Shown here: positions 2,799 to 43,792 of the stretch, piece after piece
Layout: every line of letters starts with the position of its first letter
How positions within the stretch are numbered: position 1 is the stretch's first letter
NCBI GenBank assembly: GCA_030630065.1
Contig: DAOVNU010000001.1
Span: 1-43,792, forward strand
Source of the DNA: a bacterium
GTDB taxonomy: Bacteria > Ratteibacteria > UBA8468
Reading direction: 5' to 3'
Length of the DNA: 43,792 nucleotides
Made by a program: the position numbers and the translations under genes
Notes under the pieces: generated by a model
Databases searched by the model: none
The model's input: only the letters and a program-made list of their open reading frames with translations
Told to the model about the DNA's origin: nothing

Positions 2799-3308
2799 TT
2801 ATTTAATTACTTCCAGTTCCAAATAGATATCCTGAGCCGGAAAAATAAAACAGAGATATTTTTCATAAAAATGGGTGGAGATAATAGCAAGAAATTTTCC
2901 AATAATCTGGCTGCTGCCAAAAGTCAATCTTTTCCTAACTAACCTGAACTTTTTCTTTGTATATTTTCGCGCCTTTGTGCCTTCAATAAAATAGTTAAAC
3001 GACTCTAAACTAAAATGCTGTTTGTGCAAGGGGTCGGTAAATGAAGCCACATTGGAAAAATGAGGTGTTCTAATAATTACTTTTCCTTTATTCTTGGCTA
3101 TCCGATGAATTTCTTCCATTGTTTTAACGATATTATTTAGATGTTCTAAGATATGAGAGCAGATGATTAAATCAAACTCGTTCTCCTTCAGCGGCCAGGA
3201 AAAAAGGTCCAAGTTATGAATAATATCCACTTCCGGACAATCTTCAATGTCAATCCCAATTGCTCCTTTCCTTTTATTCTTTCCGCAGCCAACGTCCAAA
3301 ATTTTCAT
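2799..3308 (-). CDS. Small class I SAM-dependent methyltransferase (Methyltransf_11-like)
   Basis: 169 aa with MKILDVGCGKNKRKGAIGIDI ... DLIICSHILEHL. The stop abuts the start of the downstream gene (TAAATG). Confidence 0.75.
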   Translation of the reverse strand: MKILDVGCGKNKRKGAIGIDIEDCPEVDIIHNLDLFSWPLKENEFDLIICSHILEHLNNIVKTMEEIHRIAKNKGKVIIRTPHFSNVASFTDPLHKQHFSLESFNYFIEGTKARKYTKKKFRLVRKRLTFGSSQIIGKFLAIISTHFYEKYLCFIFPAQDIYLELEVIK

Positions 3309-4269
3309 CTATCTTCTCCAAAACTTTTTCCGGGCTAATATTTTTCATCCGGTTCATCTTTTTATCCTCTAAAATAATATGTTCTTTTCCTACGGGACCA
3401 CATCTTTTTGGGTCGGTAGAAGCAAAAAAAGCCAGCACCTTTGTGCCTACGGCGGCAGCAATATGCATCGGTCCGGTATCTCCGGTAATGAATAACTGGC
3501 AGCATTTTGCCAGGGCGGCTAACTGGCGCAGATTGGTTTTTCCGGCAAGAGACAAAACATTTTCCGATTTTGCCAGAGCAATTTCTAACTGGTAACAGAT
3601 GGCGGAACTTCTTTTATCCCCTTTGCCAAAAATAAGAATCTTTGTGTTATATCTTTCTATTAGTTCTTTTCCCAGTTGGATGTAATATTTCAGGAGCCAC
3701 TCTTTTGCAGGGTAGGCGGAAACAGGATTAAGGCCAACTAAAAAGTCCTCTTTTGAAACTCCTTTTTCCCGCAGTACCTTTTCCGCAGCGCTTTCCTCTT
3801 CTTTTGTCAGATAAATTTTCGGCTCAGGAATTTCTCCTTTAAGGTTCAACAACTCAACCATATTTAAATAACGGTATAAAGCGTGTTTTTCCGGACACCA
3901 TTTTTTGGGCCTGAGATTATAGAAGTACCTGTATCTTAAGGATTGATGAAAACCCACCCGGTATTTTGCCCGTGTAAGAAAGGCAAGCAAACCGGCTTTT
4001 CCCTGCAAGGAGGCAATCAGGTCAAATTTCTCCTGTCGCAATAACCTAATACATTTCAAATAAGAAAATCTTTTGTTTCGATTATGAATAATTATTCTAT
4101 CCAGGAAAGGATTTTCTTCTACAATGGGTGCGGTAATCGGTGTAAGCAGCATTGAAAGATGACTCTGGGAATAATTTCTTCTCAGTAATTCAATAATTGA
4201 AGTGGCAAGAACCACGTCGCCAATGGCGCTGTAGCGAATCAACAAAATCTTTTTTACCCCTTTAACCAC
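3274..4269 (-). CDS. Glycosyltransferase family 9 (ADP-heptose:LPS heptosyltransferase-like)
   Basis: 331 aa with KKILLIRYSAIGDVVLATS at the N-terminus and ITGDTGPMHIAAAVGTKVLAFFASTDPKRCGP near the C-terminus. The start is an apparent GTG at 4269 with no clear SD. The 3' end overlaps the next gene by 35 nt. Confidence 0.8.
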   Translation of the reverse strand: MVKGVKKILLIRYSAIGDVVLATSIIELLRRNYSQSHLSMLLTPITAPIVEENPFLDRIIIHNRNKRFSYLKCIRLLRQEKFDLIASLQGKAGLLAFLTRAKYRVGFHQSLRYRYFYNLRPKKWCPEKHALYRYLNMVELLNLKGEIPEPKIYLTKEEESAAEKVLREKGVSKEDFLVGLNPVSAYPAKEWLLKYYIQLGKELIERYNTKILIFGKGDKRSSAICYQLEIALAKSENVLSLAGKTNLRQLAALAKCCQLFITGDTGPMHIAAAVGTKVLAFFASTDPKRCGPVGKEHIILEDKKMNRMKNISPEKVLEKIDENFGRWLRKE

Positions 4270-31096: not shown

Positions 31097-32146
31097 TTAT
31101 TTAATTTTTAAAACTTCCCAAAGTTTTTCTTCGTCCTTAATTTTTACCTCAATTCTCAAAGCGCAGATCGGTTTTGGAAAACTAATTTCTTTTAGCTTAA
31201 TTAAATCCTTCTCGGTAGTGAGAAGAATGTCAAATTCTTCCCTCAAAATTCTCTTTAAGTCCCTCTTTTTATACCAGTGGTGGTCCGGGAAGAAGGATTT
31301 TCCCTTGATTTTAACTCCTAAACCCTTTACTAAATTTTCGAAGGTTAAAGGATTGCCGATGCCGGCAAGAAGCCAGACCTCTTTTCCAAAAATTGCGGAA
31401 AGTTCAGATATTTTCCCCGAGGAATCTACTAAAGAGACCGGTTGATAAGAACTTTCAATAATATTTGCCCTGGGATTGATTTCTTTGAGGTTTTTTTTGA
31501 AATTAGCCAACTTTTCCTGGTCTGTCAAATTTATATGATTAAGCCAGAAACAATCGGCACGTTTTAAACTGGACAAGGGCTCGCGCAGAAGACCGAGGGG
31601 AAGCAACTTTTTATTAGAAAAGGGAGATGTAGCATCAAGCACAACGATTTCTAAATCCTTTTTTAAATATCGATAATGAAAAGCATCATCCAGAATAATT
31701 GTGTCTGCCTTAAAATTGTTTAAAGCGATTTTAGTCAGTCCTTTCCGGTTTCTTCCGATGAGAACCGGGACTCCGCTTAAATTTTTTGCCAATAAACCTG
31801 CTTCATCCCCGCTTTCTCTTGGCTCCAGTAGAATTTCCCTTTTGTTGGAAACCAGAAAGCCGTTTCCTTTTTTCTTGTAACCCCGGGCAATAACCGCTAT
31901 TTCCTTTTCCTTTTTTAGGAATTGTTTTGCCAAAAAGATTGTAATTGGCGTCTTTCCCGTTCCTCCGGCGGTAATATTCCCGATACTAATTAGAAAGCAA
32001 TTCAATTTTATACTTTTTAAAAGGAATTGGTGGCAAAAAAGGAAATTTCTTATTTCCACTACTAACCAATAGAAAAAGGAAAAAGGAATCAGCAAAGGAA
32101 AAAAAAGAGCAATTTTCTGATTTCTTTTAATCTGAAAGTTTCTCAT
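31097..32146 (-). CDS. lpxK: Tetraacyldisaccharide 4'-kinase
   Basis: 349 aa with an N-terminal hydrophobic anchor and the P-loop ISIGNITAGGTGKTP. It overlaps the upstream gene by 20 nt. Confidence 0.85.
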   Translation of the reverse strand: MRNFQIKRNQKIALFFPLLIPFSFFYWLVVEIRNFLFCHQFLLKSIKLNCFLISIGNITAGGTGKTPITIFLAKQFLKKEKEIAVIARGYKKKGNGFLVSNKREILLEPRESGDEAGLLAKNLSGVPVLIGRNRKGLTKIALNNFKADTIILDDAFHYRYLKKDLEIVVLDATSPFSNKKLLPLGLLREPLSSLKRADCFWLNHINLTDQEKLANFKKNLKEINPRANIIESSYQPVSLVDSSGKISELSAIFGKEVWLLAGIGNPLTFENLVKGLGVKIKGKSFFPDHHWYKKRDLKRILREEFDILLTTEKDLIKLKEISFPKPICALRIEVKIKDEEKLWEVLKIK

Positions 32147-33191
32147 TTCTTTCCTTGAGCAGTTCTCTCAGGAAAATATTCTCAACGTGGTCATCATTGG
32201 GGTCAGCCCTGTCCAGGCCAGAACTTTTGAGTTCAAGGTATAGGTTACCGCCCGGGGTTTTTTTAATACGGTATTGATAAGGACGACCGTAAGGGTCAAG
32301 GAGATTACTGCCTGGTGTCAGGTAGGGACCTTTCCAGTCAGGGATTCCCGGATTAAGGAGTAATGCCTGTAAACCCTGCTTCCTGGAAGGGTAATGTCCG
32401 GTATCAAGATAGAGTTGAATGAGCGCTCCTTTAAGAACCCGGAAATTCTCCTCCGTCTTTCTGATGCCGCGGCGCTTAAGCCCGCTTTCCCTGACTAATT
32501 TGGATGCCTTTTTAGCCATCTCGGCATGACCGTCGGTGATACTACCGATTGGGCCAATATAGGAAAAGGGAATACTGCTTTTCCATCGTTCCCATTCAGC
32601 GGCTTCCCTTAGCTCCAATAATTTGGGAGGAGTAGGTTTTTTGTTAAAGACTACCGTAGTTGCCATTTTTTCTTTAAGGAGAATATAACCCGGTTCCTCT
32701 CCTCTTCCCCGAACTCCTACCTCTCCTTTGAGCACGGCAATACGGGTGCTATTTTCCTTTAAGGCAACCATAAAGATGGTTCCTCTGACCCCGGCGATGG
32801 CGGTAAAGGTCTCCACCTTAAATCTGGATTCGGTTGTTTTTAGTTTTCCCACCACCGACCAGATTTTTCCTTTCTTTACGTCAAGGCAAATCTTTGTTGT
32901 CTCCTCTTTCTGCTGATACTCTTTAATTTCCAGGGAGGTTTTCTCGTTAAGGGTGGTTGCTCCTTCCTGGCCAAAGGTAAGGATTGCCTCGGAATTTTCC
33001 TCTGTGCGGAGCTGGGAGCCCTCCTGCAGTTTTGTGCTTATGGTGGCTGGCTGCCATTCTTCTTTGGGGGTGGTGCGAAATTGCACCTTTCCTTTTAGTT
33101 TACTTAATTCTCCTGCAGGTAACCGGGTCTCGGCTGCATTTAAGATTCCTGTAAAAAGGAAAACTGTCAAGATTATAATAGCTTTCTTCAT
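32127..33191 (-). CDS. Secreted fusion protein: FecR-type domain plus type II secretion GspG-like (pseudopilin globular) C-terminal domain
   Basis: 354 aa with a Sec-type signal peptide (MKKAIIILTVFLFTGILNA). The FecR core is KVETFTAIAGVRGTIFMV...VLKGEVGV. The C-terminus reads LIQLYLDTGHYPSRKQGLQALLLNPGIPDWKGPYLTPGSNLLDPYGRPYQYRI...SSGLDRADPNDD, like the GspG body but without a prepilin leader or methylation motif. Confidence 0.65.
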   Translation of the reverse strand: MKKAIIILTVFLFTGILNAAETRLPAGELSKLKGKVQFRTTPKEEWQPATISTKLQEGSQLRTEENSEAILTFGQEGATTLNEKTSLEIKEYQQKEETTKICLDVKKGKIWSVVGKLKTTESRFKVETFTAIAGVRGTIFMVALKENSTRIAVLKGEVGVRGRGEEPGYILLKEKMATTVVFNKKPTPPKLLELREAAEWERWKSSIPFSYIGPIGSITDGHAEMAKKASKLVRESGLKRRGIRKTEENFRVLKGALIQLYLDTGHYPSRKQGLQALLLNPGIPDWKGPYLTPGSNLLDPYGRPYQYRIKKTPGGNLYLELKSSGLDRADPNDDHVENIFLRELLKERNEKLSD

Positions 33192-33233
33192 CTTCTACAT
33201 AATACTGCATTCAGAGGCAAAATACAATGTCAA

Positions 33234-33262
33234 TTGACAATTTTGATGAATTGGGGTAAAAT
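33234..33262 (+). promoter_or_regulatory. Sigma70-type promoter of the CheY-like receiver gene
   Basis: TTGACA-attttgatgaattgggg-TAAAAT with a 17-nt spacer, followed by a GAGGAG SD and the ATG at 33287. Confidence 0.65.
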
Positions 33263-33286
33263 TATAGCCAAGAAAGAGGAGAAATT

Positions 33287-33694
33287 ATGGGAATACAGAG
33301 AAGGATTTTGGTGGTGGATGACGAGCCGGCGGTAGTAAAAACCTTGAGCAAGGCAATTCGGCGTCAGGGTTTTGATGTCGTCAGTGCCTCCGATGGAGAG
33401 GAGGCATTGGAGAAGGTAAGAAATAGTAATCCCGATTTAGTGATTCTTGATATTCAGATGCCGAAAGTGGATGGGATTGAGGTTCTGCAGAGAATTAAAG
33501 GAAGTCCTGAAACTGCCTCCCTGCCGGTGATTATGCTTACGGCAAAGGTCGGGGACGAAGACATTCTCAAGGGCTATAAATATGGCGCCAATTACTATAT
33601 TCCCAAGCCCTTTAAGATGATTGAGGTTTTGCAGGGAATTGAGATGATGTTTCGATCTATAGATGAAGAGAAATCCCACCGCTTCAAGATTTAA
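33287..33694 (+). CDS. Single-domain response regulator (CheY-like receiver)
   Basis: 135 aa with ILVVDDEPAVV ... DLVILDIQMPKVDG ... VIMLTAK ... YIPKPF. A GAGGAG SD and a consensus promoter lie upstream. This is the only plus-strand gene. Confidence 0.9.
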   Translation: MGIQRRILVVDDEPAVVKTLSKAIRRQGFDVVSASDGEEALEKVRNSNPDLVILDIQMPKVDGIEVLQRIKGSPETASLPVIMLTAKVGDEDILKGYKYGANYYIPKPFKMIEVLQGIEMMFRSIDEEKSHRFKI

Positions 33695-34910
33695 TTATCT
33701 TCTTCAAATAGGGCAAAGTAATGGTGAAGGTTGTTCCCTTTCCTACCTTTGAGGTGACTTTAATCTTTCCCTGATGTTCCTTAATTATTTTTTCCACTAC
33801 CGCTAAACCAATGCCTGTTCCCTTGGAACCTTTGGTACTGTAGAAAAAACTGAAAATCTTCTTAATTTGCTCTTCCGGAATACCACAACCGGTATCGCTA
33901 ACCTTAATCTGGAAGAGTTTCTTCTTCTTTTCCAAATAGGTTATTATCTCTACCTTTCCGCCTTTTCCTCCCAGAGCATCAAGACCATTACCCACCAGGT
34001 TCAATAAAACCCTTTCCATTCCCTGGGGGTCGATTGAGACCTCATTTAAATGGGAGTCAAAATTGGTAATTAATTTTACCTTTTCCTTCTTTGCTCTCTC
34101 TCTCTGGGAGGCAACAATCTGTTTTATAATTTCGTTGAGGTTAGTGAGACGATAGAGAGGTTTACGTTCCTTGGAATAGTTCAGCATATCTAAAACCAGA
34201 TTGGAAACCTTATCCAGATATTCCTCAGTCGTTTCCCAACCGCTAACAAAGGTTTCCCGATCTTTATCTTCTAAACCGATGTGCACCATTTCCTTTCCCA
34301 TCTCAATACCGGTGAGAAGATTCTTGATATAATGGGAAAGACCGGCAACTGTCTGACCCACAGCGGCTAAACGTTCTGCTTTAAGGTTTTCTGCATATAA
34401 CATAGCATTCTCAATCGCTATTGCCGCTTGAGCGGCGATTGTTTCCATTAAGTTGACATCTTCCTGATTGAATGGTCTTTTATCCTTTTTGTTCAATACC
34501 TCCAGGACACCAATTAATTTTCCTTTGCGCAACAGGGGAGCGGCTAAAACCGACCTGGTGATAAAGCCGCTTCTGCTGTCTGCTCCTTGATAGAAATGAG
34601 AATCTTTGGCAACGTTGGAAACGTTGATAATTTGACGCTTTTTGGCGGAGGCACCGGCAATTCCCTGTCCCAGTTTTAACCTTATTTTCTTTATTCCCTT
34701 TCCTTTCTTACCCAAAGCCACCTCAAAGAAAAGTTCCTTGTTTTCCGGGTCATAAAGCATCAAAGAACTGGCTTCCGCGCACAGAGCTTTTTTACTCTCC
34801 TCCATAATCAATTTCAACAAACGGTGCAGATTGCCGATGGAGGCAATAAATTCATTCACTTTATAGAGCGTTTTAATCTGTTTCTTTAACGAATTTAAAT
34901 CCTGTCTCAT
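33684..34910 (-). CDS. GAF-domain sensor histidine kinase (cytoplasmic)
   Basis: 408 aa with an N-terminal GAF domain, the H-box AAVGQTVAGLSHYIKNLL, and HATPase motifs NLVGNGLDA, DTGCGIP and GTGIGLAVV. Confidence 0.85.
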   Translation of the reverse strand: MRQDLNSLKKQIKTLYKVNEFIASIGNLHRLLKLIMEESKKALCAEASSLMLYDPENKELFFEVALGKKGKGIKKIRLKLGQGIAGASAKKRQIINVSNVAKDSHFYQGADSRSGFITRSVLAAPLLRKGKLIGVLEVLNKKDKRPFNQEDVNLMETIAAQAAIAIENAMLYAENLKAERLAAVGQTVAGLSHYIKNLLTGIEMGKEMVHIGLEDKDRETFVSGWETTEEYLDKVSNLVLDMLNYSKERKPLYRLTNLNEIIKQIVASQRERAKKEKVKLITNFDSHLNEVSIDPQGMERVLLNLVGNGLDALGGKGGKVEIITYLEKKKKLFQIKVSDTGCGIPEEQIKKIFSFFYSTKGSKGTGIGLAVVEKIIKEHQGKIKVTSKVGKGTTFTITLPYLKKIIKS

Positions 34911-34913
34911 TTT

Positions 34914-35819
34914 TTATGGGTTAATTATTGGTATCTGTCCAGGGTACCCATTGATTTTTCCGGGTTGATAAGGGACAGAAGGAAGTTCAGGAGATTGCCA
35001 TCTCCCCGGCTGAACCCCTCCTTTCCATCCTAATGTCTTTATCCTTTTCTTGATTTCTTGCTGTTGCCTGAGAGGTAAAGTTCTATATTTGTCAATTTCC
35101 TCTCGCAGTTTTTCTCTTTTAAAAGGACTCAAACCCTGCCACCATTCCTTTGTTTGTTTTCTCCTTGCCTCTAAATAAATAAATCTTTCTTTCCAGATAG
35201 TCGTACTTTTTGATAATCCATATGGGATTTGGGGAATCCGGTAAGGAAGGACAGAGGTTTCATAATTACTGGGAACCAAAAATTCTTTGGTCACGGTACC
35301 TTCCCGGGTAATTCCTCTTACTTCTACCTTTCCTTTGAAGACGGCAATTAGGGTCTTTTCGTCTTTTATCTCTACCATAAATCCTGTTCCCCGCGCCCCA
35401 GCCACCGCTGTGGGAGTGCGGATTTCAAACTTAGAAAGCGGAAAGGGAATGGTCTCAATCTCAGCCAAAACCCTTCCCATTTCTAATTTTAGCGCCGATT
35501 CCTTAGAATTATCTTCTCTAATTTTTATTTTCTGAATCTTCAGGAGAGAATCTTCCGAAAGTTCCACAATATTCTCATAATCAAATGTTATCTCAGCGGA
35601 GGAATCCTCCTTCGTCTGGACCTTGTCCCCTTCAAAGAGAAATAACCCCTCTTTTGCTGCTTGCCAGGTTGTCTGCTCCTTTTCCTGAATCAGCACCTCT
35701 CCCTGAAATGCAGAAAGGACGGCAATCTGCTCTTTCTCACTTTGGACTTCCTCCGGACATGCTGAACCTGTCAGAAAGAGTATAAGGAGAAACGCTAAAC
35801 CTTCTGTTTTAACCTTCAC
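34914..35819 (-). CDS. Secreted FecR-domain protein
   Basis: 301 aa with a signal peptide and the FecR core IRTPTAVAGARGTGFMV...VFKGKVEV. The C-terminal tail is basic and proline-rich. Confidence 0.7.
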   Translation of the reverse strand: MKVKTEGLAFLLILFLTGSACPEEVQSEKEQIAVLSAFQGEVLIQEKEQTTWQAAKEGLFLFEGDKVQTKEDSSAEITFDYENIVELSEDSLLKIQKIKIREDNSKESALKLEMGRVLAEIETIPFPLSKFEIRTPTAVAGARGTGFMVEIKDEKTLIAVFKGKVEVRGITREGTVTKEFLVPSNYETSVLPYRIPQIPYGLSKSTTIWKERFIYLEARRKQTKEWWQGLSPFKREKLREEIDKYRTLPLRQQQEIKKRIKTLGWKGGVQPGRWQSPELPSVPYQPGKINGYPGQIPIINP

Positions 35820-37807
35820 AACAATCTATTGATTTTATAAACAGCAATGGGATTTTTCTTTCCCCGAACAGTTATTGGTTCCATCTTCCGGCAGTCCACT
35901 AAATTCTTCACTAAGGAATAAGTATTTCCACTAATGATAATCTCTCCTTCAGCCGCAATCTCCTCCAGACGCGCCGTTAAGTTCACCGCATCGCCGATGG
36001 CGGTATAGTCCATCCGCTCGGGTGAGCCGATGTTGCCGATGATTACCTCCCCGGTATTAATGGCAATTCCCGCCTCAATTTTTCTACCAATTAATGCAAG
36101 CCATTTCTGCTCAATCTTTTTGATTTCCTGCTGGATTTCAACTGCGGTGCGAACCGCTGCCTCCGCATGGTTAGGTTGCGGAAGCGGAGCGCCAAAGACC
36201 GCCATCACACAGTCCCCGATGAATTTATCCAGAGTTCCCCGATATTTGAAGATTGCTTTTACCATTATGGTTAATGCCTCATTAAGAATCTCCACGACCT
36301 TCTCCGGCTCTAAATTTTCAGAGATTTTAGTGAACCCCCGGATATCGGCAAAGAGAATGGTTAATTCCTTCTTCTCACCCCCTAAGGTAACCTCTCCGGG
36401 TGAGGTTAACAATTTATTAATAATTTCCGGAGCGGTATAACGAGAGAAGAGCGATTTAATCCGCATCTTTTCTCTACTTTCAAAGACAAAACGATAGAGA
36501 ATAGTTGCAAGGTATGCCAGGAAAATCACCAGAAGCGGAGCGACGAGAGCAATCCAGATTCCCGGGGATTTAAATAACCAAAAAGCAAGGAAGAAGTAGA
36601 CAAGAGCAATCCCCAGAGTTAATAATATTCCCTTGAAAGCATTTAGCCGGGGGATAATTGTACCCAGCAGAAGCCCTAGGAAAATAAGAACCAGAAAATT
36701 AATTGGTCTTTTTACCTGTCGCAGAAAATTTCCTTTAAGGATATTGCTGACTACACTGGCGTGCACCCCGACCATTGGATATTTTGCAGAAACAGGAGTG
36801 GGCCGCAAATCTACCGTTCCGGTAGCTACGTATCCAATTAGAACTACCTTACCTTTTAACTCCGAAAGGGGAACAATCGGTTTTTCTCCTTTTTTGAGTT
36901 GAAGATAGGACTGGAGAACCTGAACAAAGGAATATGCCGGGAATTCCTGGATGTCTCCCGGGAAGTTGATGAGCATACAACCCTTTTTGTCAATGGGTAT
37001 TTTAATTTTGTTGGGTAGAATCACCTCTTTACCGGGAAGAACCTTAAGCGATTTCAGGGGAACATTAAGCTCTTCGCAGGCGAGCACAAGACCCAGAGTT
37101 GGATAAAGCCGTTCACTTGACCTGATAAAGAGAGGAATTCTTCTGCTGGTTCCATCGCTATCAGGTGGAAGGTTAATCATTCCCAGCCCTTTTGCGGCAT
37201 AAGCGAGATTTTCAATTGGCAGGGAGGCGGATGAAGAATGGTAGAATTGACCACTCCCGGCAGGGGCAGGAAGAGAAAATCTTTTTAATCTTTTTTCGGA
37301 GAGAAATTTTCCTTCTTCTCCGGGAAGTTTGAATTGAGAGAGTTCAAAGAAGAAGGTATGATAAACGTTGCCGGCATTTTTTGTTGTTTGGACCAGAAAA
37401 TTATCACATTCCGGATGCTCCGAGGGGTCCAAAAAGAGAATGTCAAAACCAATGGCTTTAACTCCCCTCTCTTTAAGAATTTGAATCAACGTTGCATAAT
37501 AATCCCTGGTCCAGGGCCAACAGCCGATAGCTTTGATATCCCTGTCTTCAATAAAGATAATGGCAATTTCCGGGCTGGGTTTGCGGGGACCACGAAGTTT
37601 AAAACGAAGGTCAAGAGTGGTTAATTCGGACTTTTCCAGAAGAGGAGTGAGAGAGACAAGAATTACGAAAAGAGCAGCAAAAAATCCAATCCAGATTCCA
37701 GTTAATCGCGGTTGGTTCTTCTTTCGGAAGATTTTAAGGGGTTTCATCCAATTCTTCCACAATTCGGTTGCGAACTTTACCCAAAACCTCTTTTGTTGCG
37801 ATATCAA
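35816..37807 (-). CDS. CHASE2-domain membrane receptor adenylate/guanylate cyclase (class III)
   Basis: 663 aa with an N-terminal TM segment, a periplasmic CHASE2 region, three to four TM segments and a cyclase domain (LTILFADIRGFTKISE ... KFIGDCVMAVFGAP ... IGDAVNLTARLE). The true start may be the internal ATG at 37747 (MKPLKIF...), which reduces the overlap with the upstream gene to 14 nt. Confidence 0.85.
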   Translation of the reverse strand: MISQQKRFWVKFATELWKNWMKPLKIFRKKNQPRLTGIWIGFFAALFVILVSLTPLLEKSELTTLDLRFKLRGPRKPSPEIAIIFIEDRDIKAIGCWPWTRDYYATLIQILKERGVKAIGFDILFLDPSEHPECDNFLVQTTKNAGNVYHTFFFELSQFKLPGEEGKFLSEKRLKRFSLPAPAGSGQFYHSSSASLPIENLAYAAKGLGMINLPPDSDGTSRRIPLFIRSSERLYPTLGLVLACEELNVPLKSLKVLPGKEVILPNKIKIPIDKKGCMLINFPGDIQEFPAYSFVQVLQSYLQLKKGEKPIVPLSELKGKVVLIGYVATGTVDLRPTPVSAKYPMVGVHASVVSNILKGNFLRQVKRPINFLVLIFLGLLLGTIIPRLNAFKGILLTLGIALVYFFLAFWLFKSPGIWIALVAPLLVIFLAYLATILYRFVFESREKMRIKSLFSRYTAPEIINKLLTSPGEVTLGGEKKELTILFADIRGFTKISENLEPEKVVEILNEALTIMVKAIFKYRGTLDKFIGDCVMAVFGAPLPQPNHAEAAVRTAVEIQQEIKKIEQKWLALIGRKIEAGIAINTGEVIIGNIGSPERMDYTAIGDAVNLTARLEEIAAEGEIIISGNTYSLVKNLVDCRKMEPITVRGKKNPIAVYKINRLL

Positions 37808-38393
37808 GGAGTTTCAATCGGTGGCGGAGACCGCGTTTATAACGGGCAAGGTTGAGAAGACCTGTAGGTAACTTTAAATTTTTGTCAACGTTGAATTCTT
37901 CGTCGAAGATTGGTTCATCGGAATTTTCGGGAAATAGTTTTACCCGCATTGAAAGGGCGATGACGAATTTATCCTTTGCCCATAGTGTAAAGACATTACC
38001 CAGATAGGGGATAAGGGTGGATTTATTCAGTTTAATCACCTCCTGAAAATGCAGGAGTTCCCCTTCAAGCCGATAGTCAGTGGGTTCTTGTTTTACCTTA
38101 AAGCCGTAAGCCATCAATTCCCTGGTGAGTTGTTGGGAGATGAGTACTGCCGGCGGTTGGGCAAAATCTTTGTCCTTGGTGCTGAAAACCAAAAATTCTC
38201 CTTTTAGACCCTCTCTCTCTTCCATAGGTCTTTTGTCGGTAAAGGTTAAAACCGAAATGGTAAAGGGCTTTTCAATTTTCTGCTCCGGTGCCTCAATTTC
38301 ATACTTAATTGTGTGCGGAGCGGTTGCACACCCGGCTAAAAACGCTAAACCAACGAACAAAATGACGCTTCGTAATATTTTTAATTTCTTCAT
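37734..38393 (-). CDS. Lipoprotein, candidate Mla/MCE-associated auxiliary lipoprotein (PqiC/YmbA-like position)
   Basis: 219 aa with a signal peptide and lipobox (LAFLAGC). The gene follows the MCE gene with a 4-nt overlap. The functional call rests on gene position only. Confidence 0.45.
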   Translation of the reverse strand: MKKLKILRSVILFVGLAFLAGCATAPHTIKYEIEAPEQKIEKPFTISVLTFTDKRPMEEREGLKGEFLVFSTKDKDFAQPPAVLISQQLTRELMAYGFKVKQEPTDYRLEGELLHFQEVIKLNKSTLIPYLGNVFTLWAKDKFVIALSMRVKLFPENSDEPIFDEEFNVDKNLKLPTGLLNLARYKRGLRHRLKLLDIATKEVLGKVRNRIVEELDETP

Positions 38394-39124
38394 GGTAATC
38401 TCCTCAATTTTTCTGCTTCCGTTTTTTTCTTCTTGCGTTCCCTGGCTTTCCAGATAAGTCGACTGGGATTCTTCTTGATGATTGCGCTGAACTCCTTGGC
38501 ATTGACCGCAGTATCCTTTAAGTTCTTGATGATTTCCCGAATGTCCTCTCTGTTTTCTTCCATTATTTCGTTGACATTTTTCAGTAATAGAGAAAGTTCG
38601 GCGACATCGAACTTTTCAGCGAGTAAGCGAAATCTATCCGAGGTTGCTTTGATGGAAAGGATTGTTGCCGCGATACTGTCCCCCAAGCCACCGGCGGTAT
38701 TGATAATTTCCTGGATGTCCAGCGGTTCCTTTGCCTGGATAATACCTCCGGGAGGAAGGGTAGGACTATTTCTGGAACCCGGGGTAATGGCTAAACACTT
38801 TAAACCAATTACTCCGGTTGCTATAATTTCCGCAAGAGAATCCTCTTTGACCTCCACGTTTGCAGGAAGATTGATGGCAATTTCAACCTGCTTATCCTTC
38901 CCGGGAGTGATGATAATTGAGTCGATGTGTCCCATCTTATGACCGGCAAAGGTAACCGGAGCGCCTTCTTCCAATTGAGCAATTGACTTGAAATAAATTT
39001 TATAACGGAATTCCTTTTTAAAAAGGTTCAAGCCGCCAACGAGAAAAAGAAGGGTGAGCAGGATTAAGAGGCAAATTACAATCATTACTCCCGATTTAAT
39101 CTCCGATTTCAGATATTCAGCCAT
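38390..39124 (-). CDS. mlaD: MlaD/MCE-domain protein (substrate-binding component of Mla-type ABC transporter)
   Basis: 244 aa with an N-terminal TM anchor, then YFKSIAQLEEGAPVTFAGHKMGHIDSI ... LAEIIATGVIGLKCLAITPG. Confidence 0.8.
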   Translation of the reverse strand: MAEYLKSEIKSGVMIVICLLILLTLLFLVGGLNLFKKEFRYKIYFKSIAQLEEGAPVTFAGHKMGHIDSIIITPGKDKQVEIAINLPANVEVKEDSLAEIIATGVIGLKCLAITPGSRNSPTLPPGGIIQAKEPLDIQEIINTAGGLGDSIAATILSIKATSDRFRLLAEKFDVAELSLLLKNVNEIMEENREDIREIIKNLKDTAVNAKEFSAIIKKNPSRLIWKARERKKKKTEAEKLRRLP

Positions 39125-39143
39125 AATTTTCTCTCCTATATTT

Positions 39144-39923
39144 TTACGTTAAACTTTCTAAGTACTCCTTGCCGCTGCGCTGCCGAGTGAGTGGCCCCTC
39201 AGGGGAACCGTTAATAAATTGTTGCACAACCTCATTCTGAGAATTTTTAATTTCGGAGATTGTTCCATCGGCAATAATTTTCCCCTGATGCACCATCGCA
39301 ATTTTATCGGCAATTGTGAAGGCACTTTCCATCTCATGAGTTACCACAATGGAGGTTATGTTTAATTTTTTGCTTAAATCCGCAATTAATTTGTCAATAA
39401 CGGAACGGGTAACAGGGTCCAGACCTGCGCCCGGCTCATCGTAGAATACGACCTGGGGGTCAAGAGCAATCGCTCTTGCTAATGCAACCCTCTTTTTCAT
39501 CCCCCCGCTGATCTGGGAAGGGAAAAGTTCGTTGAAACCGGTGAGACCGACAAGTTCCAACTTCATTTTTACCACTATTTCAATAATTTTGTTATCCAAT
39601 TTGGTATGTTCCCTTAAGGGGAGGGCAACGTTTTCGCCGACACTCATTGAGTTAAAGAGTGCCCCGCTTTGATAGAGCATACCGAATTTTTTTCTCATCT
39701 TGTCCAGAGAATTTTCATCCATTTTTGTGATGTCCTTCCCCTCGATGAGGATTTCACCATTATCGGGTTTCAAGGCGCCAATCAGATGTTTCAAGAGCGT
39801 GCTTTTACCGCAACCGCTGCCCCCCATAATTACGGTGATTTTTCCCTTTTCTATCTTCAGATTGATGTTCTCCAGAACCTTGCGCTTCCCAAAAGTTTTA
39901 GATAAATCTTTTATAGTAATCAT
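39144..39923 (-). CDS. mlaF: Mla-type ABC transporter ATP-binding protein
   Basis: 259 aa with Walker A GGSGCGKST, the signature ISGGMKKRVALARA and Walker B VVFYDEPGAGLD. Confidence 0.85.
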   Translation of the reverse strand: MITIKDLSKTFGKRKVLENINLKIEKGKITVIMGGSGCGKSTLLKHLIGALKPDNGEILIEGKDITKMDENSLDKMRKKFGMLYQSGALFNSMSVGENVALPLREHTKLDNKIIEIVVKMKLELVGLTGFNELFPSQISGGMKKRVALARAIALDPQVVFYDEPGAGLDPVTRSVIDKLIADLSKKLNITSIVVTHEMESAFTIADKIAMVHQGKIIADGTISEIKNSQNEVVQQFINGSPEGPLTRQRSGKEYLESLT

Positions 39924-40714
39924 ATAAAATAGAACAAAGCATTAAGAACACAATCGGTAATAATAATCAAAAAAATTGAGGTAACAACCGAGGTTGTTGT
40001 CGACTTTCCTACTCCCTCGGCTCCCCCGGCAACAATGAACCCCTGATAACAACCAACCATTCCGATAATCCCGGCAAAAAATACGCTCTTGGTAAGTCCG
40101 GTAACGATGTCTTTTACTTCCATCGCCTTAAAGGTCTGTGAAAAATAGTAAAAAGTATCAATTCCTAAACTGAATTTGGCAATCAGATAACCTCCTAAAA
40201 TTCCCGTAGTATTGGCAACAATAACCAGGCAGGGAAGCATAATCAGGATGGCAAGAAGTCGGGGAGCAATGAGAAAACGCACCGGTTTGATGGCCATTGT
40301 CTCCAGAGCATCTATTTCTTCGGAAACCTTCATCGTACCCAGTTCTGCTGTCATTGCGGCTCCTACCCTTGCCGCGACCACAATGCCCGTGAGTAGGGAA
40401 CCAATTTCCCTGGTGAAACTCACTCCCACTAAAGCCCCTACCAGAACTTCTGCCTGGAAGATTTTCAACTGGTAAGCGGTAAGCATTGCCAGGGTGATGC
40501 CAAAGAAAAAAGAGACAAAAGCAACAATGGGCAGTGATTTTACCCCGATTAATTCTAATTGCTGGGAGAGGTATTTTCTGCTTACAGGTTTACCTTTAAA
40601 GGGAGCAATGAAAACCCAGTAAAGCGCTTGTTGAAAGAGAGAGGAGATACTGCTTAGATGTCTTAAGGAAAGGTTAAAACTCTGCCCCAGATAACCACAG
40701 AAATTTTTCATCAT
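39920..40714 (-). CDS. mlaE: Mla-type ABC transporter permease
   Basis: 264 aa with FTREIGSLLTGIVVAARVGAAMTAELGTMKVSEEIDALETMAI, which is diagnostic for MlaE/Ttg2B. Confidence 0.85.
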   Translation of the reverse strand: MMKNFCGYLGQSFNLSLRHLSSISSLFQQALYWVFIAPFKGKPVSRKYLSQQLELIGVKSLPIVAFVSFFFGITLAMLTAYQLKIFQAEVLVGALVGVSFTREIGSLLTGIVVAARVGAAMTAELGTMKVSEEIDALETMAIKPVRFLIAPRLLAILIMLPCLVIVANTTGILGGYLIAKFSLGIDTFYYFSQTFKAMEVKDIVTGLTKSVFFAGIIGMVGCYQGFIVAGGAEGVGKSTTTSVVTSIFLIIITDCVLNALFYFI

Positions 40715-40724
40715 TAGGGGGTTA

Positions 40725-41057
40725 TTAAAACGATTTCAAGGCCTCCTGCTCATCAGGATAAATGGAAAAAACGTTTATTAATTTGGAGACCTCAAAGATA
40801 TCCTTAACCGTTTGATTTAACCCGCTAAGTTTTAATTTACCGCCATATTTATTCATCTTTTGCATCAATTCAATCAGGGTAGCCAGACCGGAACTATCGA
40901 TATAAGTCACCCTAACAAGATTCACCAATATTGCTTCTTTCTTCTGGTTGGTCAGGTTGCCAAACCTTTCCCGCATTGCCGAGGAATTATAAAAATCAAC
41001 CTCTCCCGACGGTTCGATAATAACTATATCCTTTTCCGTTCTTTCTTTTATTTTCAT
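40725..41057 (-). CDS. STAS-domain protein (anti-sigma-factor antagonist, SpoIIAA/RsbV-like; possibly MlaB-like)
   Basis: 110 aa with VTYIDSSGLATLIEL, which carries the conserved phosphorylatable serine context. It lies 10 nt upstream of mlaE. Confidence 0.85.
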   Translation of the reverse strand: MKIKERTEKDIVIIEPSGEVDFYNSSAMRERFGNLTNQKKEAILVNLVRVTYIDSSGLATLIELMQKMNKYGGKLKLSGLNQTVKDIFEVSKLINVFSIYPDEQEALKSF

Positions 41058-41467
41058 TTTTTGTATTTAATTAGACGCAGGGTTGTCCCTATTTTAGAGG
41101 ACGTATCATAACGAACCTCATCCATAATTTTCTTGATAAAGAAGATGCCTAAGCCACCCGGTCTTACCTTTTTTAGAGGACGATGCCGTAAACTCCCTGG
41201 TTTCGCCTTTTTACCGAAGTCCCTGATGCTTACCTCCAATCGGTCATCCTTATCCTCAGCGGTAATAATCATTCTTTGATTATACCTACCCTGATAGGCA
41301 TATTTAATCACATTAGTGCAGGCCTCGTCAATGGCTAAGACAATATTCTTAACCTCCTTTTTGCCAAATTGCATCTCTTTTGCTACTTGAGAAATGGCCA
41401 TCCTGATTAGACCTAAAAATCTCGGATGGCTGGGAAGGGAAAGTTTGACGGACGGGATTCTTTTCAT
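41054..41467 (-). CDS. Anti-sigma regulatory factor-type serine protein kinase (RsbW/SpoIIAB-like, HATPase_c_2)
   Basis: 137 aa with the N-box LAIDEACTNVIKYAY and the G-box PGGLGIFFIKKIMDEV. Confidence 0.8.
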   Translation of the reverse strand: MKRIPSVKLSLPSHPRFLGLIRMAISQVAKEMQFGKKEVKNIVLAIDEACTNVIKYAYQGRYNQRMIITAEDKDDRLEVSIRDFGKKAKPGSLRHRPLKKVRPGGLGIFFIKKIMDEVRYDTSSKIGTTLRLIKYKK

Positions 41468-42738
41468 TGGCTTTCTACCTTAATTGCTACCAGCGTGAGG
41501 TCATCGGATGCCGGTTTACCCTGGGAGAAGAATTTTATCTTTTGCAGAACTTCCTTTCCCAACCCGGCGGCATCATTCGGAGCATCGTTGACCAACTTAA
41601 GAATCTTCTCCGAAGAGAACCTTTTACCGTTTTTCCCCTTTGCCTCGGATAATCCGTCGGTATAAAGAAAAAGAAGGTCTCCTTTTCTCAATTTAATTTT
41701 GTTTTCTTTGAAAGAAAAATCGGAAGAAACACCTAACGGCAGCCCTTTTTCACCTTCCAGTAATTTTACCTTTCCCAAACGTTTAATTAAAGGGGCGGGA
41801 TGACCGGCATTGACGTAGGTTAAAGTTCTGTTTTTTGCATCAAGGAGCAGGTAAATTAGAGTAACAAATAGACCCAGGGTAGCGCTTTCGGCAAGGAGCT
41901 TATTGATTGCGTTCATTGTTTTGCCTGGTTTTTTGTCAGGGGAAGCAACAAGTTTAAAATCGCTGATGGTTTTAGCCATAAACAAAGCCGCAGGAATACC
42001 TTTTCCGCAGATATCACCGAGGACAATGCCGGTTTGTTCTTTCCCCAGTTCAATAAAATCGTAAAAATCCCCGCTGATTCCGGCAACCGGAATATTTCTC
42101 GCCCAGAATTGGATTCCTTTTACCCGGGGATATTTTTGGGGAAGGAGATTGTTCTGGATTAATCGGGCGATGCGCAACTCCTCCTCTACTTTTTGCCGCT
42201 CCAGGAGAAATTGATGCAGACGCGCATTTTCAATGGCAATCCCGGACTGATTGGCAAAGGTGGTAAAAAGTTCCACCTCTTCTTCCCCGAATGGCTGACA
42301 CGGATTAATTGCTTCTAAGATGCCAACAACCTTTCCTTTAACCTTCATCGGAACGGCTAAAATGGACTTTGTCTTAAAGCCGGTGGACTGGTCAAGTTGA
42401 TTATTAAATCTCGGGTCTTTCTTAACCTCAGGAATCAGCAGAGGTTTTTCTTTTTCTGCAACCCAGCCGGCAATTCCCTGGCCCTTCTTTAATCTGAATT
42501 TTTTAATCTCTTTACCTTTTTCTCCGAGAGCAATCTCATAGGTTAATTCCCCTGTTTTTTCATCCTTAAGCATTAAGGAAGATGCCTCTACCCTCATCAC
42601 CTCTTTGGAAATTTCCATAATGATCGTTAGGAGTTTCTTCAGATTCAGGGTGGAGTTGATGATTTCATTGACCTTGATGATGCTGGCAAGATTGGATAAC
42701 CTTTTTTTTAGGGATTTTGTATCTGTTTCTTTCCTCAT
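41464..42738 (-). CDS. GAF-domain PP2C/SpoIIE-family serine phosphatase (RsbU-like)
   Basis: 424 aa with an N-terminal GAF domain. The PP2C motifs are ISGDFYDF ... LGDICGKGIPAALFMA ... YVNAGHP ... LFLYTDGLSEA ... DDLTLVAIKV. Confidence 0.85.
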   Translation of the reverse strand: MRKETDTKSLKKRLSNLASIIKVNEIINSTLNLKKLLTIIMEISKEVMRVEASSLMLKDEKTGELTYEIALGEKGKEIKKFRLKKGQGIAGWVAEKEKPLLIPEVKKDPRFNNQLDQSTGFKTKSILAVPMKVKGKVVGILEAINPCQPFGEEEVELFTTFANQSGIAIENARLHQFLLERQKVEEELRIARLIQNNLLPQKYPRVKGIQFWARNIPVAGISGDFYDFIELGKEQTGIVLGDICGKGIPAALFMAKTISDFKLVASPDKKPGKTMNAINKLLAESATLGLFVTLIYLLLDAKNRTLTYVNAGHPAPLIKRLGKVKLLEGEKGLPLGVSSDFSFKENKIKLRKGDLLFLYTDGLSEAKGKNGKRFSSEKILKLVNDAPNDAAGLGKEVLQKIKFFSQGKPASDDLTLVAIKVESQ

Positions 42739-43751
42739 TTTGTCATTAGCCGACTGAACCAGATTAAGGATTTAACATTAAGCCGCACAGTTGCTTTCAG
42801 CAAAGGTTTATTTCTGATGAAGTCCGCAATCGGTGGAGAGGTTCTATAATATACTTTGACGAAATCTCTTCCCAGAGGACTGGTTAAGAGATATTTATCG
42901 CGGAATTTACTCAAAGCCCTAACCTCTTCTGCCATTGGTGTGCCGAAGGCAGCGGTAGCGATGAAACAACCACCACCTCCACCTCCATCCGATACGTCAG
43001 CAGATACAATGCCTCCTGGTGGAGGCGGGGGAGATTCCCCAGATTTCCCTTCTTCATAGGAAGGAGTTCTGTCGAGATTATAATTAACCCCATCTCCTTC
43101 TGCAGAATAATCTCTCTCTATAACAGCTCTAACCTCATTGTGGGGAACAATCAGGGTAATGTCATTAGCGGTCTTATTATAGACAAAACAGCCATGCATT
43201 GGCACAAGATTTATGACTGCATAATAGTTACCATTATTCCAGAACCAGGCAACATTACCACAGAGAGGGTTTTCGGGGTCATTAGCATTATATTCATAGG
43301 TTCCGTCGGTAACCATAACATCACTCCAGGCGACCGCAAAGTTAAAGGGGCAGGCAATCTGGTTCCAGCCCGGCGCCAGATGAATTTTATAGTCCCGGGT
43401 ATTGTTATAGTCGTAAACACAACCGGTGCTGTGGATGGTGACATTGTCTCGGCTAATCAACCAGGCGGAATGTCCAACTAACGGCTGTCCCGGACCAGGA
43501 CCGATATCGTTACTTGAAGTTCCCTCCTCATAATACGGTTCCTTTTCTCCCTCATCCGGTTCCCAATGGAAGCATCTCCATTGGGTATTATCATAGGGAC
43601 CTAAGTAATCCCCTAAAACAGAACTCATCTTTGTATCCTGTGGCTCTACTGGGGTGGAAATCATCGTGTAGTCGGCAGGAGTAGTTCCCCCGGTGAGATT
43701 GCGGTGGTCTGTTATTGGCGAACAGCTGTGTATCTGCCATTTATAATGCAT
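42735..43751 (-). CDS. Hypothetical protein with C-terminal CFIATAA ('CFI-box'-type) domain preceded by Pro/Gly-rich linker
   Basis: 338 aa with ...GESPPPPPGGIVSADVSDGGGGGGCFIATAAFGTPMAEEVRALSKFRDKYLLTSPLGRDFVKVYYRTSPPIADFI.... No signal peptide is visible at the annotated N-terminus. An in-frame stop lies 18 nt upstream of the ATG. Confidence 0.55.
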   Translation of the reverse strand: MHYKWQIHSCSPITDHRNLTGGTTPADYTMISTPVEPQDTKMSSVLGDYLGPYDNTQWRCFHWEPDEGEKEPYYEEGTSSNDIGPGPGQPLVGHSAWLISRDNVTIHSTGCVYDYNNTRDYKIHLAPGWNQIACPFNFAVAWSDVMVTDGTYEYNANDPENPLCGNVAWFWNNGNYYAVINLVPMHGCFVYNKTANDITLIVPHNEVRAVIERDYSAEGDGVNYNLDRTPSYEEGKSGESPPPPPGGIVSADVSDGGGGGGCFIATAAFGTPMAEEVRALSKFRDKYLLTSPLGRDFVKVYYRTSPPIADFIRNKPLLKATVRLNVKSLIWFSRLMTK

Positions 43752-43792
43752 GCTGTTTTCGCTCTCTTAACTATACACATTTGCGGTTGCCA

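Follow-up and report, generated by a model that had tools for sequence, protein, structure and literature searches.

The analysed window, 43,792 nucleotides (nt) of contig DAOVNU010000001.1 from a bacterium of the Ratteibacteria (assembly GCA_030630065.1), raises the question of what a partner-switching module might control when its genes are joined to those of the lipid transporter MlaFED and not to a sigma factor gene. In this window a GAF-domain phosphatase, an RsbW-type serine kinase and a small STAS-domain protein are encoded directly upstream of mlaE, mlaF and mlaD. The original prediction, made from the sequence alone, was that the STAS protein may serve as an MlaB-like subunit whose availability is set by reversible phosphorylation. 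This interpretation is supported here on the basis of comparative genomics, and it is consistent with the structural data for Escherichia coli. A functional coupling of the module to MlaFED is very likely, and a phosphorylation switch that has this transporter as its output, instead of a sigma factor, seems probable, with appreciable room for doubt.

The seven open reading frames (ORFs) recognised in the original prediction are all present on the minus strand, and their family identities were upheld by Pfam and NCBIfam profile annotation. The first (41464-42738) encodes a serine phosphatase of 424 amino acids (aa) with a GAF domain (PF01590, 5e-21) and a PP2C domain of the SpoIIE family (PF07228, 5e-46). 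It is followed by the genes of a GHKL serine kinase of the RsbW/SpoIIAB type (41054-41467, 137 aa; HATPase_c_2 PF13581, 9e-28; best NCBIfam match RsbW, 6.5e-25) and of a STAS protein of the SpoIIAA/RsbV type (40725-41057, 110 aa; STAS PF01740, 5e-23; TIGR00377, 79.7 bits with a cutoff of 53.5). The transporter genes encode the permease MlaE (39920-40714, 264 aa; PF02405, 4e-76; TIGR00056, 248 bits with a cutoff of 212), the ATP-binding cassette (ABC) ATPase MlaF, which carries a C-terminal extension (39144-39923, 259 aa; best NCBIfam match PRK11831, 4.5e-81), and the MCE subunit MlaD with an N-terminal transmembrane helix at residues 12-30 (38390-39124, 244 aa; PF02470, 5.6e-14; TIGR04430, 1.6e-17). 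The last of the seven genes (37734-38393) encodes a lipoprotein of 219 aa with a signal peptide and the lipobox LAGC, and without a family match. The 4-nt overlaps claimed between the phosphatase and kinase genes and between the kinase and STAS genes are borne out by the coordinates, the second of them being also read from the sequence, as is the 10-nt spacer between STAS and mlaE by both coordinates and sequence. Further 4-nt ATGA overlaps were found at mlaE/mlaF and at mlaD/lipoprotein. The public gene call of the source contig lists nothing between STAS and mlaF; as the mlaE ORF is intact, this is an annotation gap.

Conservation and rearrangement of the operon

The linkage was surveyed from three anchors, and the best 80 loci were examined in each scan. 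Loci were annotated by mechanical ORF calling and by iterated hidden Markov model searches seeded with the window proteins, and the taxonomy labels of metagenome-assembled genomes (MAGs) were used as deposited. In the STAS-anchored survey, a profile built from 50 STAS homologues was run against one genome per GTDB species, and the best 80 of 529 related loci were taken. The STAS gene was located directly upstream of mlaE-mlaF-mlaD in 77 of these 80 loci, at a median distance of 11 nt from mlaE (30 nt or less in 74 of the 77), and the kinase gene lay within the operon in 70 of the 77. The identity to the window STAS protein was 38-74%, and the flanking genes varied between loci. In one locus (L046) the kinase and STAS genes are followed by a 1-kb gap without a called mlaE ORF and then by mlaF-mlaD, and in two Chthoniobacter loci the STAS gene was found alone.

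For the MlaE anchor, four MlaE homologues on long contigs were used, three of them picked for names from other phyla. All four contigs, which include a Chlamydiota-labelled MAG, a KSB1 genome and Candidatus Ancaeobacter, encode GAF-PP2C, kinase, STAS, MlaE, MlaF and MlaD. For the kinase anchor, a kinase profile from a narrower alignment (A3) was run against metagenome contigs; STAS was found immediately downstream in 59 of the 67 loci with at least 350 nt 3' of the kinase, and mlaE in 42 of the 44 loci with at least 1300 nt downstream of it. In one of the two exceptions without mlaE (L165), an mlaF gene lies at the edge of the contig and on the other strand, in keeping with a divergent arrangement of the kind described below.

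The linkage was thus found in Omnitrophota, Verrucomicrobiota, Auribacterota, a Chlamydiota-labelled MAG, KSB1 and unassigned metagenome lineages, and those homologues that have a source name are mostly from Omnitrophica/Omnitrophota. A lack of this adjacency in relatives had been named as grounds for abandoning the prediction, and it proved to be conserved far beyond the close relatives. Its recovery from each of the three independent anchors shows that the adjacency is not accidental. The module is widespread in the Planctomycetes-Verrucomicrobia-Chlamydiae (PVC) group and neighbouring phyla, and the genomes and metagenome contigs that have it number well over 100. No STAS-MlaE fusion was present among the best 120 MlaE homologues. 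On one single-cell contig (JBHPFV010000032.1; L019 and L020), two copies of the mla operon form a perfect palindrome, which looks like an amplification chimera.

The components recur in at least five arrangements. The first, GAF-PP2C/kinase/STAS/MlaEFD, is that of the window, Auribacterota, Theseobacter, KSB1 and others. In the second, which is the commonest among Omnitrophota-type loci, the order is kinase/STAS/MlaEFD, sometimes with genes of a FecR-like protein and an outer-membrane beta-barrel, and then a phosphatase in which PP2C is fused to a CHASE2 sensor domain; such a downstream CHASE2-PP2C gene was found in 33 of the 77 STAS-anchored loci. In the third, known from Verrucomicrobiota (L012, L025, L056, L080), the GAF-PP2C and kinase genes follow STAS/MlaEFD, and in L036 and L047 the two enzymes form a single GAF-PP2C-kinase polypeptide of 570-580 aa, as confirmed by Pfam for L036. 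The fourth consists of STAS/MlaEFD with kinase and PP2C absent within about 10 kb (L050, L072, L092). In the fifth (L133, L171, L175; truncated in L165 and L177), the order is mlaF-mlaE-mlaD-STAS, with an MlaD of 145 aa and the GAF-PP2C and kinase genes divergent, which is the gene order of E. coli with STAS at the position of MlaB.

In every arrangement the STAS gene is inside the mla transcription unit, and the kinase and phosphatase are the mobile parts. This is expected if STAS is a transporter-side component on which the enzymes act, and it is not expected if STAS is merely an antagonist of a kinase that has its business elsewhere; the rearrangements therefore favour the idea, already present in the original prediction, that STAS belongs to the transporter. 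Two side observations concern the STAS proteins. In one MAG a single ORF of 246 aa (L052:607-1347) joins kinase and STAS, with both Pfam domains, and may be either a real fusion or the result of a frameshift error. In two other loci (L013:8001-9852, L014:8001-9852) a related STAS gene overlaps the start of a transporter gene of the PF07670 'Gate' family, in place of mlaE; here, too, a STAS protein may have a transporter as its partner.

The STAS protein, its enzymes and the transporter

The phosphorylatable serine expected of a partner-switching STAS protein is present in the motif YIDSSGLATL (residues 52-61; Ser55 codon at 40895-40893), in which Y52, D54, S55, S56, G57, L58, A59 and T60 are invariant among the 50 STAS homologues. 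An AlphaFold2 model (mean predicted local distance difference test, pLDDT, 93.9) shows a complete SpoIIAA topology, in which helix alpha-2 begins with Ser55, and in Foldseek searches it superposed best on SpoIIAA from the SpoIIAB complex (template modelling (TM) score 0.89-0.90), and also on TM1442 and RsbV. The offset of the profile alignment sets Ser55 opposite Thr52 of E. coli MlaB, whose sequence was checked against 6xbd_K. As MlaB does, the STAS gene shares one operon with mlaF, mlaE and mlaD, in the window and in the three surveys, and the L171 protein, which is encoded at the MlaB position, matches E. coli MlaB as a single sequence with an E-value of 3.4e-4.

The position of this serine is of interest for what is known of MlaB. 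In E. coli, the three helices of MlaB contact the helical subdomain of MlaF, with Thr52 central in the interface; the phosphomimetic T52E substitution weakens the binding, and MlaF is lost from the complex when MlaB is missing (Kolich et al. eLife 2020). The same authors posed the regulation of MlaB as an open question and called phosphorylation an 'intriguing' possibility, for which there was no experimental evidence at Thr52.

The enzymes needed for such a regulation look competent from their motifs. In the kinase, the N-box (E48/N52), G1 (D83-x-G85) and G2 (G105-x-G107...D116) residues are invariant or nearly so in the 45-70 operon kinases compared, with E48, N52, G105, G107 and D116 invariant among the aligned copies, which are otherwise diverse (19-72% identity in the broad alignment of 45 sequences). 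The family profile matches Bacillus subtilis RsbW (6m36_A, 1.2e-25) and SpoIIAB (7e-13). The PP2C domain has its metal-binding motifs (GDFYD, GDICGKG, TDGLSEA and DDLT), whose conservation across 52 operon copies is at least 80%, and the GAF-PP2C protein is predicted to dephosphorylate the phosphorylated STAS protein. Taken with the phospho-acceptor motif, kinase, phosphatase and substrate thus all appear to be intact.

The transporter core is likewise complete, in that MlaE, an MlaF-type ATPase and an MCE-domain MlaD are encoded in one operon. The MlaF protein scored 272 bits with PRK11831, below the equivalog cutoff of 441, and aligns end to end, the C-terminal extension included, with Acinetobacter baumannii MlaF (7d06_B, 4e-76). 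This extension is kept in 69 of 69 operon copies and occurs also in the MlaF of the solved MlaB-containing complexes of A. baumannii and Pseudomonas aeruginosa. Neither MlaC nor MlaA was found among the Pfam and NCBIfam profile matches of the window ORFs.

From these data we infer the binding of STAS to MlaF, the phosphorylation of Ser55, the sign of the regulation and the cyclic AMP (cAMP) relay discussed in the next section. The unphosphorylated STAS protein would take the role of MlaB, docking on the helical subdomain of MlaF with its helical face, in which Ser55 is central, and this docking would stabilise or activate the ATPase on MlaE and so enable transport. The RsbW-type kinase would take the same face of STAS and phosphorylate Ser55, whereupon STAS would leave MlaF and the transporter would be switched off. 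On arrival of a signal the PP2C phosphatase would strip the phosphate and restore STAS, which would in this way alternate between two partners, the kinase and MlaF.

Several results weigh against this mechanism. Neither its sequence score nor its fold places the STAS protein in the MlaB family, and it is instead a full SpoIIAA/RsbV-type STAS protein: it reaches 29.7 bits (E-value 6.5e-7) with the MlaB model NF033618 (mlaB_1), below the cutoff of 90, and its profile matches TM1442 (5e-24) and SpoIIAA (1e-19) against 5e-5 for P. aeruginosa MlaB and 3e-3 for E. coli MlaB. In Foldseek, E. coli MlaB gave TM scores of 0.65/0.73, and MlaB structures rank 32nd or lower. The model contains strand beta-5 (98-100) and helix alpha-4 (103-109) and so departs from the 'minimalist' fold of four strands and three helices, without beta-5 and alpha-4, by which MlaB has been defined (Kolich et al. 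eLife 2020). The E. coli T52A variant is non-functional yet binds MlaF, which its authors found hard to square with a simple phosphoregulation (Kolich et al. eLife 2020). The conservation of the serine in the STAS-anchored survey is not independent evidence, because that survey demanded the motif Y[IV]DSSGLAT and the DSSG motif was therefore required by construction. MlaF's C-terminal extension is a weak indication of STAS binding, because the MlaF of Veillonella, which has no MlaB, has a shorter one too. Finally, a second and more divergent STAS paralogue, with the motif YLDSAGLS or YISSIGVS, is encoded in 8 of the 80 genome-anchored loci, beside CHASE2-PP2C in six (L026, L032, L033, L053, L060, L064) and upstream of the kinase in two (L051, L094), and this paralogue could be the real substrate of the switch, an additional one, or a competitor.

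Covariation between the proteins was calculated as mutual information with average product correction from 111 paired STAS, MlaF, kinase and MlaE sequences (effective number of sequences 65-86). The top pairs were formed by clade-marker columns (V96, T83 and S91), which pair with everything, transmembrane positions of MlaE included.

The lipoprotein at the end of the seven genes has homologues in close relatives only and gave no Pfam match even at E-values up to 1. Its AlphaFold2 model (pLDDT 63.8) was most similar in Foldseek to 2iqi (XCC0632, DUF330/ABC_trans_aux; E-value 1.4e-5, TM score 0.55/0.66), and the KSB1 locus (L097) has a PF03886 gene at the same position. The protein is probably a divergent accessory of MCE systems of the PqiC/ABC_trans_aux (DUF330) type, an assignment that is tentative.

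Signal input and neighbouring genes

According to the original prediction, the signal was to be supplied by the GAF domain. This stands insofar as a GAF domain is present on the window phosphatase; it does not hold as a general description, since the phosphatase of the relatives is mostly fused to CHASE2 and the window operon contains a CHASE2 protein of its own. The overlapping co-linear chain of genes in fact exceeds the predicted unit in both directions, with the gene of a CFI-box protein upstream and those of a CHASE2-cyclase, a FecR-like protein and a GAF histidine kinase downstream, all on the minus strand.

The first of the downstream genes (35816-37807; its TTG start is uncertain) encodes a membrane protein of 663 aa, in which a CHASE2 sensor domain (7e-58), flanked by transmembrane segments at residues 35-53 and 368-437, is fused to a class III nucleotide cyclase domain (Guanylate_cyc, 5.5e-29). 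It occupies the place that is taken by CHASE2-PP2C in 33 of the 77 relatives. A CHASE2-cyclase gene was found in or beside the operon throughout the clade of the window, as delimited by a STAS identity of at least 53% (window, L001, L017, L018, L101), and directly upstream of GAF-PP2C in L017, L018 and L101. The cyclase carries Lys in the motif DKFIGD and Thr in DYTAIGD, which we take to be adenylate-cyclase-like residues, as in class IIIb cyclases. The solved structures nearest to the GAF domain of the phosphatase are cyclic-nucleotide-binding GAF domains, namely 5w10_A (2e-26), presumably the cAMP-bound GAF domain of Lcd1, CyaB2 (2.5e-22), PDE5, PDE2 and PDE10. The GAF domain of Lcd1 senses cAMP (PMC8846402). 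Because CHASE2 is fused to an adenylate-cyclase-type domain and the phosphatase has a cyclic-nucleotide-type GAF domain, a relay from the CHASE2-cyclase through cAMP to GAF-PP2C is probable in the lineage of the window.

The FecR-domain protein (34914-35819, 301 aa; FecR, 1.1e-15) and the GAF histidine kinase (33684-34910, 408 aa; GAF, 7.5e-20; HATPase_c, 7.9e-27), whose membership of the unit is uncertain, are clustered with the CHASE2-cyclase and a divergently encoded response regulator at 33287-37807. The GAF domain of the histidine kinase closely resembles that of the phosphatase, the two proteins sharing 44% identity along 239 aligned residues in a region that spans these domains (E-value 5e-35), which suggests that one cyclic-nucleotide signal might be read by two effectors, the GAF domains of the PP2C protein and of the histidine kinase.

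In about 30 relatives mlaD is followed by a FecR-domain gene, after which there usually come the gene of an outer-membrane beta-barrel protein and then CHASE2-PP2C. The gene of about 340 aa that is always present between the FecR-like gene and CHASE2-PP2C (L026:13342-14352, L040:11527-12549 and about 20 further loci) encodes a protein with a signal peptide, a C-terminal aromatic signature and matches to outer-membrane beta-barrel families (PF10082, PF13505). This composition suggests that CHASE2, the FecR-like protein and the beta-barrel may form a sensor of the envelope state that spans the envelope. The input would thus come from the envelope, mostly via a membrane-embedded CHASE2 domain, fused to the phosphatase and with a predicted periplasmic orientation, together with the FecR-like protein and the beta-barrel.

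A wider and more speculative picture is possible, and we offer it tentatively, as somewhat less probable than not. The beta-barrel, the FecR-like protein and CHASE2 would report the state of the outer membrane to PP2C, directly or via cAMP, and the phosphorylation of STAS would tune the flux through MlaFED within seconds, closing a trans-envelope feedback loop; the 'minimalist' MlaB of Proteobacteria, which has no kinase and a conserved Thr52, would be a degenerate remnant of this older phospho-switch, with the operons of L133, L171 and L175 as intermediates.

Of the neighbouring genes, that of the CFI-box-CTERM protein (42735-43751) stands at the start of the co-linear chain and overlaps the start of the phosphatase gene by 4 nt. 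Its membership of the unit was rejected, as conservation of the gene does not extend past the two closest relatives, in which further genes lie between it and PP2C. The protein contains a Pro/Gly-rich stretch, PPPPPGG...GGGGGGC. The window also carries lpxK (31097-32146) and heptosyltransferase genes (1062-2798, 3274-4269), which indicate a diderm bacterium bearing lipopolysaccharide. Within about 15 kb of the module there are genes for three separate FecR-domain proteins (32127-33191, 34914-35819 and L179:3531-4325); one of the three, whose gene adjoins lpxK, is fused to a domain resembling type II secretion pseudopilins (T2SSG). A scan of the window with Rfam gave no match, and a promoter and terminator scan of 33000-43792 gave counts that did not exceed those of shuffled sequence, no terminator standing out inside the operon.

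Possible outputs and comparison with known systems

The classical explanation of a module of this kind would be that its output is a sigma factor, or another regulator bound by the kinase, which is encoded elsewhere, with the kinase as anti-sigma factor and STAS as its antagonist, and that the mla genes are merely co-transcribed with the module in an envelope-stress programme. The kinase and the STAS protein are indeed nearest to RsbW/RsbV and SpoIIAB/SpoIIAA by sequence and structure, and many bacteria encode Rsb-like modules away from the sigma target. The absence of a sigma factor gene from the window, part of the original prediction, was confirmed by a Pfam scan of all ORFs of at least 110 aa, and none is called in a further 5.6 kb upstream on the source contig (ENA ERZ23498622 scaffold_276, 52 kb). 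The surveyed loci were searched by jackhmmer with RpoE and FliA probe sequences, which did recover rpoD and extracytoplasmic function (ECF) sigma genes and so work as probes. Across 178 loci (1.9 Mb) only four sigma ORFs were found, two rpoD and two ECF, and none of them after the kinase. The rpoD-like genes (about 520 aa) lie immediately upstream of the kinase in two sister Omnitrophota genomes (L041:7863-9443, L059:3512-5071), which speaks for a sigma output; this adjacency, in 2 of 80 genomes, is probably due to chance. The ECF genes, in two other loci, are several kb from the module. A separate MlaB together with a kinase-bound sigma factor elsewhere in the genome had been named as evidence against the original prediction; in these loci no alternative sigma factor recurs, and a sigma gene in the canonical place after the kinase is lacking from the window, its 5.6-kb flank and the 178 loci.

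The rest of the genomic evidence also disagrees with a sigma output. It is STAS, not the kinase, that never leaves the mla operon, and STAS/MlaEFD operons exist whose flanks are clear of the kinase for about 10 kb. In the kinase-phosphatase fusions of 570-580 aa, a stoichiometric anti-sigma role becomes less likely, and, with both enzymes in one protein, the output is most plausibly exerted through STAS. Co-transcription alone would leave unexplained why STAS is so tightly coupled to mlaE, at a median of 11 nt, across phyla and between differing flanks. On balance, we regard a sigma factor or other kinase-bound output as unlikely.

An explanation of about the same low probability reverses the direction of the signal. 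The transporter would be the sensor: STAS would bind MlaF according to its transport or ATPase state, and free STAS would report the lipid-transport load to the kinase and phosphatase, with an output elsewhere, for example through cAMP or the GAF histidine kinase and its response regulator. Transporters are known as co-sensors for other ABC systems, the conserved linkage fits this explanation equally, and the cyclase, histidine kinase and response regulator of the window offer outputs other than Mla. However, the only signalling partner of the module in most relatives is CHASE2-PP2C, which has its own periplasmic sensor and so points to an input and not an output; the histidine kinase and the response regulator are not conserved with the module, and the serine kinase has no attached output domain.

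It is very unlikely that STAS is a constitutive, structural MlaB-like subunit with Ser55 conserved for structural reasons only and with the enzymes acting on another substrate (for example the second STAS paralogue, MlaF or MlaE). In favour of it, E. coli MlaB keeps Thr52 without a known kinase and is impaired by the T52A substitution, and paralogues with a serine in the same motif occur beside CHASE2-PP2C in at least six genomes. Against it, these paralogues are present in 8 of 80 loci only and the kinase stands beside the Mla-linked STAS in most, their genes mostly adjoining and often overlapping, and being joined in L052, and the STAS model superposes best on SpoIIAA taken from a kinase complex.

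The phosphorylation switch acting on MlaFED, if true, would mean that serine phosphorylation gates a bacterial ABC lipid transporter via a STAS subunit, for which no precedent was found in the searchable literature. It would add a new output class to the partner-switching modules, offer a possible explanation of the origin of MlaB, and point towards the stimuli of CHASE2 sensors, which are poorly understood. The question addressed by these operons is the post-translational control of Mla and other MCE transporters; phosphoregulation was raised for E. coli MlaB in 2020, with no kinase given. Since the operons encode a kinase of their own, a phosphatase gated by a signal and a STAS protein with the equivalent serine, the question of Kolich et al. 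becomes testable with purified proteins. They also correct the notion that Mla systems have STAS subunits essentially in Proteobacteria alone. MlaABC was described as sparse and mostly proteobacterial, with MlaEFD as the ancestral core, in a survey that searched for MlaB with the NF033618 model (Grasekamp et al. 2023); STAS proteins of the present type would be missed by it, because they fail that model. In the full-text-searchable literature, subscription-only papers being outside this scope, nothing was found that ties a kinase or a phosphatase to MlaB or to mla operons, and the arrangement is apparently undescribed.

Among the known systems, MlaFEDB of E. coli, A. baumannii and P. aeruginosa shares with the operon described here the MlaE-MlaF-MlaD core, a small STAS-only protein in the same operon, a Ser or Thr at the equivalent site (Ser55 and Thr52) and MlaF's C-terminal extension, and the order mlaF-E-D-STAS with a short MlaD of 145 aa is kept in L133, L171 and L175. 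It differs in that no kinase or phosphatase is known for MlaB, whereas both are encoded in the present operon; in that the STAS protein is here of the full SpoIIAA type with beta-5 and alpha-4, and precedes mlaE instead of closing the operon; and in that the window is devoid of MlaC and MlaA.

The modules RsbU/RsbP-RsbV-RsbW-SigB and SpoIIE-SpoIIAA-SpoIIAB-SigF of B. subtilis likewise consist of a PP2C/SpoIIE phosphatase, a GHKL kinase and a STAS protein with a DS(S/T)G serine at the start of alpha-2; the sensory domain is located on the phosphatase, and they provide the closest matches in sequence and structure. In contrast to them, a sigma gene is neither in the present operon nor recurrent nearby, the kinase gene precedes that of STAS (rsbV-rsbW in B. 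subtilis), and the module is inside a transporter operon. The second partner proposed for STAS is an ABC ATPase, and the output would pass via STAS and not via the kinase.

In partner-switching-like modules with non-sigma outputs, such as HsbR/HsbA of Pseudomonas and BtrU/V/W of Bordetella, a non-transcriptional target is controlled by the phosphorylation state of a STAS-only protein. This is so in the SypE/SypA system of Vibrio fischeri as well, where SypE has kinase and phosphatase on one polypeptide, as in L036 and L047. In Anabaena, HenR and a STAS protein control a glycosyltransferase (PMC13555669). None of these modules acts on an ABC transporter or on lipid trafficking, the target proposed here; their input domain is a receiver, in place of the GAF or CHASE2 domains of the present module, and they are located in polysaccharide, flagellar or type III secretion loci, not in mla operons. 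In the SLC26/SulP transporters, too, a STAS domain is the cytoplasmic part that regulates a membrane transporter, but there it is fused to a secondary transporter and has no dedicated kinase and phosphatase pair.

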